64,000 nucleotides of DNA from Candidatus Eiseniibacteriota bacterium (GCA_041946735.1 JBHGAY010000016.1:1-64000); one strand, 5' to 3'. Shown: positions 18,591 to 22,626, counted from the stretch's first letter. Numbers and translations are program-made. Notes: generated by a model from the sequence alone, not told the origin.

Positions 18591-19292
18591 TTACACTTTC
18601 GCGATGTCCCCGACGACCGTCCCGAGGACGGAGTCCATCGCCTTCAAAGCGTCGACGTTGGCCGCATAGGCCCGCTGGATCGTGATCAAGTCCACCATCG
18701 ACTGGAGCGGGTCGAAGTTCGTCTGCTCCAGCCAGCCCTGGCGGACGTTCGCGGTGCCCGCCGGGATCGGATTCGTCGTGAGCTGCGGGACGAAACGGCC
18801 GGCCCCTTCCTTGAGCAGCGCGGCCGGGTCGTCCGGATCGTTCACCTGCTCGATGCGCAGGCGGTCCACCGCCTTGCCGTCGAGCACGACCGTTCCGTCG
18901 GCGAGGATCTCGGCTTCAGCGCCTGCGAAGGCGATCGGACCCTCCCGTCCGAGGAGCGGATCGCCGTGCAAATCGGTCAGCCGCCCGGCCGCGTCGAGCC
19001 GGAAGGAGCCGCCGCGCGTCAGCCGCTCTCCGTGATCGGTCGAGACGACGAAGAAACCCGGCCCGTCGAGGGCGAGATCGAGCGGGCGTTTCGTCTCGCG
19101 CAGATCGCCCTGGCTCAGGTCGATCCGCTCGACCGGAACCGCGTGGGGCTCGTCGGGCGCTGTTCGCGCCGTGAGGCGAAGCGCCTTGAAGCCGTCGCTT
19201 CCCGCGTTGGCGAGATTGTTCGCGGTCACCTCCTGCATCCGCTGATAGAAGGACAGCGAACGCGCGGTGCCGGAGATCGCGTCGAGAGCCAT
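18591..19292 (-). CDS. flgF: Flagellar basal-body rod protein FlgF
   Basis: ANNLANA..GFK, LDLALDGPGFF, LTRGGSF, QG.LE..N; lies upstream of flgG. Confidence 0.88.
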   Translation of the reverse strand: MALDAISGTARSLSFYQRMQEVTANNLANAGSDGFKALRLTARTAPDEPHAVPVERIDLSQGDLRETKRPLDLALDGPGFFVVSTDHGERLTRGGSFRLDAAGRLTDLHGDPLLGREGPIAFAGAEAEILADGTVVLDGKAVDRLRIEQVNDPDDPAALLKEGAGRFVPQLTTNPIPAGTANVRQGWLEQTNFDPLQSMVDLITIQRAYAANVDALKAMDSVLGTVVGDIAKV

Positions 19293-19401
19293 CGGGACTC
19301 CTCCTCGGGGCCGTTGCGCGAGGCGGCACGGCTCGCCCGCTCCGGGCGACGGCGGTCCACCGTGGCGCGAAGGCGTTCCACGGCCCCTGCGCCTGCTGGG
19401 A

Positions 19402-19417
19402 AGCAAGCCTCGTGCCC
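19402..19417 (-). promoter_or_regulatory. Putative sigma54 (-24/-12) promoter of the flg operon
   Basis: Minus strand GGGCACG-AGGC-TTGCT versus consensus TGGCACG-N4-TTGCW, about 110 bp upstream of flgF. Confidence 0.7.
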
Positions 19418-20379: not shown

Positions 20380-21657
20380 TCAGCGCAGGATCTCGAGAAA
20401 CGCCTGGATGCGGGTCTCGAGCTGCGGCGCGTCCTCCATCGAGTAGTCGGTCTCGAGCCGGAGCATCGGGATCTTCTCCTGCTCGAGCGCCTGCTGCACT
20501 TTCCTCGCCTCCATGATGTAGGGAGTGCAGAACTGCAAGCCGTAATGGATCACCCCGTCCGCCCCGAGCCTGCGCGCCATCTCCACGACGTTCGCGGGGC
20601 GCTCCCGGTTGGGCGAGAAGACGGCGCAGTCGATCGCCAGGTAGCGTTCCGCGATCCGGTCGAGGATCTCCTCACGCGTCGCGCCTCCCTCGTCCACGAG
20701 ATTCCTCGTCCCTCGCTCGCCGACGCACGACTCCTCGCCGACGATCACCGCGCCGCTCTTCTCGATCAGGAACGGCACCTTCCAGTTCGGGGCGGACATC
20801 GGGCAGCCCGACAGCAGGATCCTCGGCGCGTCCGCCTTGGCGACGCCTCGACCTTCACGCATCCGGACCTCGATCTCGTCGCAAAGGGCGTTCACCTTCT
20901 CTGTGAAACGGATCGGGTCGTCGTAGAACGCCACCTGGTTGACGAGGAGGCCGTCGCGCCCCGAGATCGGGGCGAGCGGGGCAGCGCGAAGCCGGCTCAG
21001 ACGCTGCAGGGCGCCTCGTTTGGCGTTCGCGATCGCGACGCCGCGCCGGAGGTCTTCCACCCCGATCTTCCGTCCCGCCTCCTTCTCGATCTTGTCGACC
21101 AGGCGGTCCAGCTCCGAGCGCCAGAGAGTCCTGGCCGCATCGCTCTTCGTATGCGGGACTTCGAGCACGAAGGTCGGCTTGTACTCGTCGAAGATCTCCC
21201 ACGCCTTCGTCTTCCCGTCGCAGGTCGTCTCTCCGATCACGAAGTCGCAAGCTTCGACGTACGGGCAGACATGTGTGAGCTTGAACCCGAAGAAGGACTT
21301 GATCAGGGCGCACGTGTTTCGCGGCAGGACCTGCTCCGCTTCCGCAGTCCCCATCTCCGCGCCGGCGCAGAGGCCGACGGCGATCGCGTCGGCGGCCAGG
21401 AGGATCTCCTCGGGAACGTAGAGGCAGAAGGTGCCGATCACCTTCCGACCCGCCCTCTTCGCTTCGAGCAGCTCCGCGATCCGCAGCCCGTGGATCTCGG
21501 ACATCACGAAGTCGAAGTATTCCATCCCTCGAGGGCGTCCCTCCTGGGTGAGGTAGACCTCGCCGTAGGCCTTCCCGAGAGCCCCGAGGAGCGCGTCATG
21601 AGCCTCGAGGTCGATTCCGAGCCCGCTCCACATTGCATGAAGATCGTTTTGCGACAT
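20380..21657 (-). CDS. 2-hydroxyacyl-CoA dehydratase-family protein of the double-cubane cluster (DCCP) type
   Basis: N-terminal 'W..LG.DL..HD.L..Y...Y..Q..RP.GM.YFDFVMSEIHG.R' segment recalled as typical of DCCP; Cys motifs TFC, GLCAG, NTCAL, TTCDGK, SGCP, ESC, IDC, QFC; paired with an activator. Confidence 0.85.
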   Translation of the reverse strand: MSQNDLHAMWSGLGIDLEAHDALLGALGKAYGEVYLTQEGRPRGMEYFDFVMSEIHGLRIAELLEAKRAGRKVIGTFCLYVPEEILLAADAIAVGLCAGAEMGTAEAEQVLPRNTCALIKSFFGFKLTHVCPYVEACDFVIGETTCDGKTKAWEIFDEYKPTFVLEVPHTKSDAARTLWRSELDRLVDKIEKEAGRKIGVEDLRRGVAIANAKRGALQRLSRLRAAPLAPISGRDGLLVNQVAFYDDPIRFTEKVNALCDEIEVRMREGRGVAKADAPRILLSGCPMSAPNWKVPFLIEKSGAVIVGEESCVGERGTRNLVDEGGATREEILDRIAERYLAIDCAVFSPNRERPANVVEMARRLGADGVIHYGLQFCTPYIMEARKVQQALEQEKIPMLRLETDYSMEDAPQLETRIQAFLEILR

Positions 21658-21755
21658 TGCGATGCTCCCCTCCATCGCGCTCGCCGGCGCGACGTGGTTC
21701 GGACATGGTTCTGATCTGGAGGGAAGCCGAGACGAACGGGGAAGGGGAGGCGGGA

Positions 21756-21896
21756 TCAGGACGCGGCGCGCATCCGTTGCGGTGAGCCTCCAACTCGCGG
21801 TTCCGGCATCGCTCCAGCGATGGAATCCCAGGACGCAGACCTGCGCCCGGACCGGCCGCCTCAGTGTCAGAGGCTGCGGTCACGGAACCGTGACAT
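21756..21896 (-). CDS. Putative selenocysteine-containing micropeptide or leader: MSRFRDRSL-U-H-U-GGRSGRR...RAAS (46 aa if both UGAs are read through, 9 or 11 aa otherwise)
   Basis: SD AAAGGAGGTGA 7 nt before ATG 21896; in-frame TGA at 21869-21867 and 21863-21861; SECIS-like hairpin downstream; next TGA at 21758-21756. Confidence 0.6.
21828..21850 (-). promoter_or_regulatory. Putative bacterial SECIS element
   Basis: Hairpin CCGGGCGCAG-GT-CTGCGTCCTGG starting 10 nt after the second UGA; apical GCAGGTCTGC matches the E. coli fdhF SECIS apex as recalled. Confidence 0.65.
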
Positions 21897-21939
21897 AAGA
21901 AGCTCACCTCCTTTCACGACGTTGTTGGAAGCAAAGCTG

Positions 21940-21968
21940 ATGATAGCAGGGCGGTTTCGGTTCTCCAA
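21940..21968 (-). promoter_or_regulatory. Putative sigma70 promoter for the leader-DCCP-activator transcript
   Basis: TTGGAG-17 nt-TATCAT with an extended -10 (TGcTATCAT). Confidence 0.55.
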
Positions 21969-22083
21969 AGGCTTCGTGGGGACAGCGTGCTGCGGCGGGA
22001 GCGGCGGCCGACTGCTGGCCGAATCCGGGCCGCAGGGCCATGGTAAGATCCTGACCCTGATCGAGGCCGTGGGAGGAACGTCG

Positions 22084-22626
22084 ATGACTCCACAGTTCGA
22101 CCCGATCGCGGAGCGCCGGCGCAGCGGAGCGGAACATGCAGGGACGATTCGCGCCAGCTTCCCGTGGTGGGATACGCAAGTGCGCCCCGGTCTCGTACGA
22201 CTTGTCGAGGCGCTGCCGGCGAAACACTTCGATTTCAAGCCGCTTCCGCAGCTCCTGACCGCTCGCGAGATGATCGTCCACATCGCGGAGGCCGAGTTCT
22301 CATGGGTCCACTGCATTCTCGATGGTGGCGAGGACGAGGAGTGGGTGGCTCGCCGTGACGACCCGTCGGAGGGCTTCCGGCTCACGGTGGACGCTCCGGA
22401 CTCGGGGAGCATGCTCGCGAGGCTCGAGCAGTGGCACCGTCCCACCCAGGCATGGCTCGACCGTCCGGACTCCGAGCTCGGTCGCCAGATCGTCTCCCAG
22501 TCGAGAGGGCGAACCTACACCGTGCACTGGGTCCTCGATCGAGTGCACGAGCACGAGATCCATCACCGGGCGCAGCTCGCCTCTTACCTGCGACTTCTTG
22601 GGATCGAACCGCCCGAGCTGTGGTAG
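22084..22626 (+). CDS. DinB-family metal-dependent protein
   Basis: F.P...T..E...HIA.AE..W and HEIHHRAQL..YLR.LG..PP motifs. Confidence 0.88.
   Translation: MTPQFDPIAERRRSGAEHAGTIRASFPWWDTQVRPGLVRLVEALPAKHFDFKPLPQLLTAREMIVHIAEAEFSWVHCILDGGEDEEWVARRDDPSEGFRLTVDAPDSGSMLARLEQWHRPTQAWLDRPDSELGRQIVSQSRGRTYTVHWVLDRVHEHEIHHRAQLASYLRLLGIEPPELW

Follow-up and report, generated by a model that had tools for sequence, protein, structure and literature searches.

The proposed leader region upstream of the DCCP gene

This study concerns an intergenic region on the minus strand of a 64,000-nucleotide (nt) stretch of DNA (hereafter the window) from a Candidatus Eiseniibacteriota bacterium (GCA_041946735.1, JBHGAY010000016.1:1-64000). 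The region precedes a two-gene minus-strand operon encoding a double-cubane cluster protein (DCCP) and a BcrA/HgdC-type activator ATPase, and it carries a promoter, a Shine-Dalgarno sequence (SD), a short open reading frame (ORF) that runs into TGA-CAC-TGA, a hairpin and a C-rich tract (Table 1). The region is probably the 5' leader of the DCCP/ATPase mRNA, in which the short ORF is translated, a conserved UGA acts as a selenocysteine (Sec) codon served by a selenocysteine insertion sequence (SECIS), and readthrough of that codon opens the DCCP gene. An initial annotation of the window had described a Sec micro-ORF with a SECIS at the head of this operon, as one option a leader sensing the supply of Sec-tRNA/SelB, and the comparative evidence reported here supports that leader reading. 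Of the refuting conditions it listed, those that were checked (absence of Sec machinery, lack of conservation) did not apply. The promoter, SD, ATG, codons MSRFRDRSL, TGA-CAC-TGA and hairpin that it listed are all present, letter for letter, at their minus-strand places.

The identification of the downstream gene as DCCP-like also held. Its product matches solved DCCPs (PDB 7yyl, E 3e-138; PDB 6eno, E 5.7e-138) and the Pfam family HGD-D (E 3.3e-114). Its cysteines at residues 78, 97, 116, 146, 311, 344 and 377 have spacings (18/18/29/164/32/32) that come near, without literally matching, the seven-Cys DCCP motif CX19CX18-19CX29CX166-170CX32-34CX32C given in the accessible text of Haft and Gwadz (10.1101/2022.07.06.499078). 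The promoter scan returned one site, compared with 0.0 +/- 0.2 across 50 shuffles. As in leader peptides, the short SD-led ORF lies between the promoter and the DCCP start, and as for a UGA served by a SECIS, both TGAs are in frame within it, 9 codons (first TGA) and 11 codons (second TGA) after the ATG. The product has 46 residues when both TGAs are read as Sec. No terminator-like site of the kind used in classical attenuation was found in 21500-22200.

Contigs from three public runs belonging to three studies have the same leader sequence, both TGAs included; two of these may be the source, and the third spans only 21778-21928 at a depth of 2.1. Because these contigs agree, the double TGA is not an assembly slip. 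Two other ORFs that overlap the region were considered as genes and rejected: a 103-aa ORF with a GTG start (21596-21907), which has no SD of its own, and a 268-aa plus-strand ORF (21820-22626), of which only the last 180 aa correspond to the DinB gene. A flagellar rod FlgF/G-type gene (18591-19406, minus strand) lies on the same strand, 3' of the DCCP/ATPase pair.

Table 1. Features of the leader region and adjoining genes, in window coordinates
Feature	Position	Strand	Remarks
Sigma70-like promoter TTGGAG..TATCAT	21940..21968	-	Also called as TGGAGA-16-TATCAT; TG extended -10 (TGnTATCAT)
Leader ORF SD AAAGGAGGTGA	21904..21914	-	Read directly in the sequence
Leader ORF to first TGA	21867..21896	-	ATG 21896-21894, MSRFRDRSL, first TGA 21869-21867
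Second TGA (conserved sensing codon)	21861..21863	-	CAC separates both TGAs
SECIS-like hairpin CCGGGCGCAGGTCTGCGTCCTGG	21828..21850	-	Arms CCGGGCGCA-GGTC-TGCGTCCTGG
Hairpin core GGGCGCA-GGTC-TGCGTCC	21848-21831	-	GGTC loop 21841-21838
Readthrough frame	21756..21860	-	34 codons past second TGA; stop TGA 21758-21756
C-rich tract TCCCGCCTCCCCTTC	21741..21755	-	Contains anti-SD 1, CTCCC, 21749-21745
Anti-SD 2 CTTCCCTCCA	21717..21726	-	10/10 complementary to TGGAGGGGAG
DCCP gene SD GGAGGGGAG	21665..21673	-	Predicted P(unpaired) 0.0 in free leader
DCCP-type double-cubane cluster protein gene, 425 aa	20380..21657	-	Start at 21657
BcrA/HgdC-type activator ATPase gene, 253 aa	19608..20369	-	Pfam BcrAD_BadFG, E 2.6e-46
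Divergent DinB-family gene	22084..22626	+	Pfam DinB, E 5.4e-14; bounds the intergenic region with the leader

Conservation of the leader module

GGTC-loop hairpins of at least 5 bp occur 570 times in this 68% G+C genome, 50 of them by chance with a TGA 15-23 nt upstream, and the window contains the 10-mer GCAGGTCTGC a single time against 0.21 expected, with one or more copies in 18 of 100 shuffles. Since a TGA followed by a GGTC hairpin is so frequent, significance comes from conservation and not from the motif alone. A DNA search with the region in the 40 nearest relatives gave only chance-level matches, the best of them covering 36 nt at E 1.7e-4. The intergenic DNA of these relatives could not be aligned, and the comparison was therefore anchored on the protein, with orthologues picked through protein similarity alone.

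Within the order to which the window belongs, 7 of 35 genomes have an intact DCCP orthologue (59-70% identity), after leaving out G027/L048, in which only residues 327-425 match, and L049 and L050, which are paralogues with 27-28% identity. All seven carry the same module in different letters, 130-310 nt upstream of the DCCP gene. In each case a promoter-like site and a strong SD are followed by a start codon (ATG or GTG), and after 7-12 codons comes an in-frame TGA, with the loop of a hairpin beginning 17-19 nt beyond it. By eye, TTGACG/TTGAAC/TTGAAA-17-TAnnnT stands at the equivalent place in L042, L045, L046 and L047, and the TGnTAT of the window's promoter is retained in L131, the nearest relative.

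The wider sample comprised 80 loci from species-representative genomes and 80 metagenome loci, and 8 metagenome loci with less than 150 nt upstream were left out. After 38 of 167 regions had been dropped as duplicates or as shorter than 250 nt, 129 unique DCCP upstream regions were kept. These were scanned for a strict composite in which an SD and a start codon lead through 3-25 codons to a TGA, and a hairpin of at least 7 bp has its loop 17-21 nt on. It was present on the sense strand in 30 of the 129, compared with 3 of 129 for the antisense strand, and 30 first-order resamplings gave 2.07 on average and never more than 4. When the triplet ending the short frame was varied, TGA gave 30 cases, TAA none and TAG one, and the best other triplet gave 13. 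Four of the 30 strict cases are doubtful (L062, L124, L175 and L176). Bearers belong to several bacterial phyla and include metagenome-assembled genomes labelled Eisenbacteria, Armatimonadetes, Thermoanaerobaculales, Dehalococcoidales and Cloacimonadales. The module is absent from the 115-nt upstream region of E. coli yjiM, a distant DCCP homologue. Because it recurs in 7 of 7 orthologues and in 30 of 129 regions against these controls, the leader module is not a product of chance.

The initial annotation had proposed a test of whether the SD, the peptide MSRFR..L, the UGA codons and the hairpin are conserved upstream of DCCP homologues. The SD, the start, a UGA and the hairpin are, and the peptide is not: 4-19 residues precede the UGA across instances, and they cannot be aligned with one another. 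A conserved sensing codon in an otherwise variable peptide is a feature of leader peptides.

The hairpin as a candidate SECIS

Twenty-four instances of the module, taken from the scan hits, were folded. Left out were instances with weak starts or with A/T loops lacking G (L062, L088, L089, L117, L122, L124, L145, L175, L176, L177, L193 and L198, of which L117 was later seen to read U-K-U) and the duplicates L051, L069, L133, L158, L166, L171 and L186. In all 24 leaders the loop began 17-21 nt past the TGA and had G as its first or second base, with loops as different as GGTC, GGTA, AGGTCC, AGTTCG, GTC, GGT, GGC, CGTGC, CGGGC and GTT. A G at the first or second loop base is a SECIS criterion in the accessible part of PMC13582414. 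In alignment A1 the base directly 3' of the UGA is G in 16 of the 24 leaders, and 9 of the 24 contain UGAGGCG.

The likeness to the E. coli fdhF SECIS claimed by the initial annotation was confirmed in its particulars. In both elements the UGA precedes a stem-loop with GGUC at its apex, and the 10-mer GCAGGUCUGC is identical, occurring once in fdhF of E. coli K-12, directly after TGA-CAC. The loop starts 19 nt past the second TGA in the window (25 nt past the first) and 18 nt past the UGA in fdhF, and in some relatives (L084) the lower stem includes the UGA, as in fdhF. A UGA-proximal stretch that forms a lower stem enclosing the hairpin was seen in several leaders (L084, L192 and L170). The two elements differ in that the one described here lies in a short leader ORF with about 4-19 codons, whereas that of fdhF lies inside the enzyme gene, and in that the residue inserted here would, to judge from the peptide sequences, have no visible catalytic role. 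The upper stem also differs, as the 7-bp stem here lacks the bulged U of fdhF. The bulged U is a determinant for E. coli SelB and is not universal among bacterial SECIS elements.

The Sec machinery that the initial annotation had named as a check is present in the genome, with tRNA-Sec (72.1 bits), selB (349; G000 C20:25587-27452), selD (388) and selA (479) all above curated cut-offs. SelB is encoded in 12 of 12 leader-bearing genomes tested and is above its curated cut-off in 39 of 41 relatives, leaving no contrast between Sec-positive and Sec-negative genomes. The selD gene (G000 C2:109837, L017) carries, where Cys or Sec normally stands, an in-frame TGA (..MAACAG-U-ASKI..) followed by a hairpin whose loop begins 20 nt past the TGA, and SelD is therefore, on its sequence, itself a selenoprotein in this organism. 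Other candidate selenoproteins, which end at a TGA under translation table 11, are a thioredoxin-fold protein with T-U-P-Y-C (C61:4147, L226), a beta-helix protein (C16:31215, L224), a 733-aa protein with S-U-P-Y-C (C23:524, L225) and a 687-aa protein with G-C-U-G and a Por secretion tail (C38:704, L215). Pfam matches cross the TGA in the first two of these. The genes for SelD, the beta-helix protein, the GCUG protein and the C23 UPYC protein each have a 6-8 bp hairpin, its loop (GGA, GGTC, GTC or GTG) beginning 18-20 nt past the UGA, and the hairpin script detected no simple hairpin in the C61 thioredoxin-fold UPYC gene. Over the organism's own Sec genes taken together, the distance is 16-20 nt. 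Compared with these, the leader hairpin appears to be placed as it is in real selenoprotein genes.

A model (R1) built on the TGA-anchored alignment A1 ranked the window's leader as the best match in the whole genome, at 37.4 bits. Apart from the leader and chance matches, R1 found one real SECIS in the genome, which came fourth at 21.4 bits. The sequences were re-aligned by cmsearch without gaps, so the register of A1 was left unmended. Loop-centred alignments, in contrast to A1, gave clear pair counts in favour of the hairpin: 89.8% paired versus 78.7% shuffled for even loops (A4, 11 sequences, double changes in 7 of 8 pairs) and 96.6% versus 64.3% for odd loops (A5, 13 sequences, 11 of them distinct, 29 double-change cells versus 9.5), with 0 of 500 shuffles reaching the observed value in either and slid controls at 26-59%. 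The main point of these counts is the diversity of stem sequence at an orthologous place. Over 84 sources (515 kb) R1 found nothing beyond its 12 seeds. Six R1 matches in relatives at E 0.007-0.1 (L231, L233 and L236-L239, in G040, G016, G028, G018, G030 and G017) were considered as a possible regulon and rejected as false positives, as none has an SD-led short ORF and they fall mostly in coding sequence or at gene ends; the R1 matches in relatives gave no sign of a regulon in the clade. Rfam had no family at gathering score in the window, and 21400-22400 gave only chance-level matches (E 1.6-8.7).

Proposed readthrough, alternatives and significance

Past the UGA, conservation of the peptide is confined to the codons that form the hairpin, and its length varies from 16 to 38 codons. 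Eight otherwise unlike leaders (L047, L192, L143, L084, L173, L170, L206 and L082) have a readthrough frame of exactly 21 codons, and in other folded leaders the frame has 20-38. In 15 leaders, minimum free energy (MFE) folding predicts that the DCCP SD pairs with a compact CCUCC-type partner (anti-SD). The first stop in the frame of the UGA lies 5-16 nt before this anti-SD in 13 of the 15, the exceptions being L042 and L110, and the corresponding counts in frames +1 and +2 are 0 and 0. L131 carries a frame-shifting indel together with a new in-frame TGA 13 nt upstream of the old one. In the window, anti-SD 1 lies at +9..+13 from the readthrough stop and is the predicted MFE partner of the DCCP SD core.

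In models of the free leader the DCCP SD is predicted to be paired, with P(unpaired) of 0-0.3 in most leaders. Among leaders in which the stop precedes the SD by 43-55 nt, masking an assumed ribosome footprint (-15..+14 nt) at the readthrough stop raised the predicted P(unpaired) of the SD in 12 of 12, for example from 0.00 to 0.62, from 0.09 to 0.75 and from 0.30 to 0.89. Masking at the UGA left the prediction unchanged in 11 of these 12, with a change from 0.44 to 0.67 in L082. High-G+C leaders have SD sequestration in place of a terminator. In the Dehalococcoidia-type leaders L110 (2314 onward), L147 and L162, a GC-rich hairpin and a T-run can be seen by eye just before the DCCP SD, which suggests a transcriptional version of the leader.

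Beyond the observed parts of the leader and their conservation, spacing and frame, the insertion of Sec, the direction of the switch and its physiological reason are inferred. When SelB.GTP.Sec-tRNA(Sec) is available, Sec would be inserted at the UGA and the ribosome would continue, for 34 codons here and 21 in many relatives, until it halts just upstream of the CCUCC-type anti-SD. There it would melt the helix that sequesters the SD, and DCCP would be translated. When Sec-tRNA is scarce, release factor 2 (RF2) would terminate the leader at the UGA, the helix would stay closed and DCCP would remain off. The leader would in this way tie DCCP expression to selenium status through translational coupling gated by Sec insertion. 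In its favour, DCCPs almost always co-occur with SelD, with 955 of 970 in SelD-positive assemblies in the accessible text of Haft and Gwadz (10.1101/2022.07.06.499078). The proposed direction of the switch applies to the family as a whole and is ambiguous for the window's own leader.

A stronger claim is that the leader is a dedicated selenium gate and that DCCP is made only when Sec can be decoded, implying that DCCP activity needs selenium. This is conceivable, though rather doubtful. If it were true, the need might lie in a selenium atom of the 8Fe-9S-type cluster, an obligate selenoprotein or a selenium-compound substrate. In the accessible text of Haft and Gwadz, a selenium-bridged cluster is raised as a formal possibility.

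Several points weigh against the proposed leader and its switch. About 98 of the 129 DCCP upstream regions do not have the module. The TGA-anchored pair count of A1 was 60.9% paired compared with 56.6% in shuffles, of which 17 in 500 equalled it, and registers slid by -2 or -3 performed equally well; this count is weak because loops of 3, 4, 5 and 6 nt shift the register. The instances in the loop-centred alignments A4 and A5 were chosen by script for having a hairpin, and their pairing percentages arise partly by construction. The 13 leaders with the stop close to the anti-SD include the close pairs L084/L173, L170/L206 and L071/L169, and thus represent about 10 independent lineages, not 13. 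The masking results rest on a footprint that was assumed, and 12 further leaders, including the window's, showed no consistent predicted change on masking; in 8 of those 12, again including the window's, the stop precedes the SD by 63-183 nt. In none of the masked states is the window's SD predicted to open (P unpaired 0.0-0.01), because the second anti-SD at 21726-21717 takes over: it pairs with the DCCP SD in one predicted MFE fold and holds it closed in the masked folds.

The first UGA in the window adds two further points of this kind, as it lies outside the 16-20 nt range of the organism's own Sec genes, and the leader would be locked if it were not decoded. The initial annotation had described the micro-ORF by its U-H-U pair, and the comparison shows this pair to be peculiar to this species, the nearest relatives having C-T-U and R-I-U. 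Opposite the first TGA, the alignment has TGC (Cys) in L131, whose DCCP is 78% identical and whose leader reads MSRFRDRDFLCT-U, and CGT in L139. The Cloacimonadales leader L117 has U-K-U with a spacing equal to the window's. In about 7 of 22 lineages a Cys or second Sec stands no more than two residues from the conserved UGA, which exceeds the expectation from Cys frequency; the contexts are C-U, C-R-U, C-T-U, C-N-U-C, U-C, U-H-U and U-K-U (leaders L042, L043, L131, L046, L110/L162, the window's and L117). The accessible part of PMC13582414 (2026) raises, in silico, the possibility that one SECIS serves both UGAs of UXXU motifs. Two UGAs to pass would make for a stricter gate in this species; alternatively, the first UGA may be a recent Cys-to-stop change.

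Of the alternatives, the one that survives best accepts the leader and reverses its polarity. Readthrough ribosomes would cover pseudo-SDs (CUGGAG, UUGGAGGC) and the freed anti-SDs would shut off the DCCP SD, or Rho would load differently onto the C-rich tract, and DCCP would be a selenium-independent backup for times of selenium scarcity. SD-like motifs do lie inside the readthrough frame of long-class leaders, but the predicted MFE structure of the free leader pairs the anti-SD with the SD and not with a pseudo-SD. Likewise, a ribosome modelled at the readthrough stop fails to open the window's leader, but the same mask opens the SD in every one of the 12 short-distance leaders. The tract past the stop is C-rich and G-poor, and the accessible part of PMC3892789 describes selenium-dependent transcription past the UGA of fdhF(Sec) in Treponema primitia, both of which speak for this reading; a backup role fits poorly with DCCPs that, in the accessible text of Haft and Gwadz (10.1101/2022.07.06.499078), co-occur with SelD and do not replace selenoenzymes. 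On balance the reversed polarity is unlikely.

It is more improbable still that the ORF encodes a working micro-selenoprotein, of 46 aa here, that acts as a redox or selenium-carrying partner of DCCP, as the initial annotation had suggested. The ORF always adjoins a DCCP gene, and a Cys or second Sec lies near the Sec in several lineages, but the conserved things are the RNA geometry and the place of the stop. The peptide is conserved neither before the UGA, where it cannot be aligned, nor after it except over the hairpin, which argues against a partner protein; the leader product has no Pfam match, and a Cys codon aligns only with the first, non-conserved TGA, unlike what is expected of a functional selenoprotein. 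Least probable, by a little, is that the hairpin is a protein-binding operator (e.g., for SelB) or another structured element and that the UGA of the short ORF is not decoded, since the lack of an Rfam family, the 50 chance motifs in the genome and the six non-leader R1 matches (E <0.1) that speak for it are set against the fixed spacing of SD, start and in-frame TGA, seen in 30 of 129 regions versus 3 of 129 antisense, a preference for TGA over TAA and TAG, and a frame-specific stop after the UGA (13, 0, 0).

The proposed Sec-decoding leader resembles several known systems. In the trpL, hisL and pheL attenuators, a short SD-led 5' ORF senses one charged tRNA and resets the pairing of the downstream RNA. 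The leader described here likewise has a short SD-led ORF with special codons that would report the supply of a charged tRNA, but its sensing codon would be a recoded stop that requires SelB and a SECIS, and in most cases an SD helix would be opened by an advancing ribosome instead of a terminator being formed through stalling; on inspection by eye, L110, L147 and L162, of the Dehalococcoidia type, are the only leaders with an intrinsic terminator. An early in-frame UGA also serves as a sensor of a translation factor in prfB, though there it is RF2 that is sensed and a frameshift that is used. Thanbichler and Boeck are said to have reported in 2002 that SelB binds a SECIS-like hairpin in the 5' leader of E. 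coli selAB, which reportedly has no decoded upstream ORF.

Closer in its dependence on selenium is fdhF(Sec) of T. primitia, where selenium-dependent transcription was found downstream of the UGA (Matson et al. 2013, PMC3892789). There, too, selenium acts through UGA/SECIS decoding and translation coupled to downstream events, but the UGA lies inside the enzyme gene, and the accessible part of that paper mentions no leader. The co-occurrence of DCCPs with SelD reported by Haft and Gwadz (10.1101/2022.07.06.499078) also ties double-cubane proteins to selenium; it is statistical and at the level of proteins only, and no leader element is described in the accessible text, where 'upstream' stands four times and refers to other genes. 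The accessible part of PMC13582414 does not mention a leader either. Neither a Sec-decoding leader ORF nor a Sec-decoding cis-regulatory reader of selenium turned up in full-text literature searches, and a conserved leader of this kind tied to DCCP genes is apparently undescribed.

If the proposed mechanism is true, the 21st amino acid would join the things that leader peptides sense, by the recoding of a stop instead of by stalling. Mini-ORFs of this kind escape gene callers and selenoprotein finders, and the leader could offer a compact selenium-responsive switch for engineering. The leader would provide an independent, regulatory link between selenium and the double-cubane enzymes, which co-occur near-exclusively with SelD. 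If it is indeed a dedicated gate, it would be the first selenium sensor acting in cis to be described from bacteria, and a clue to the physiological role of DCCPs.

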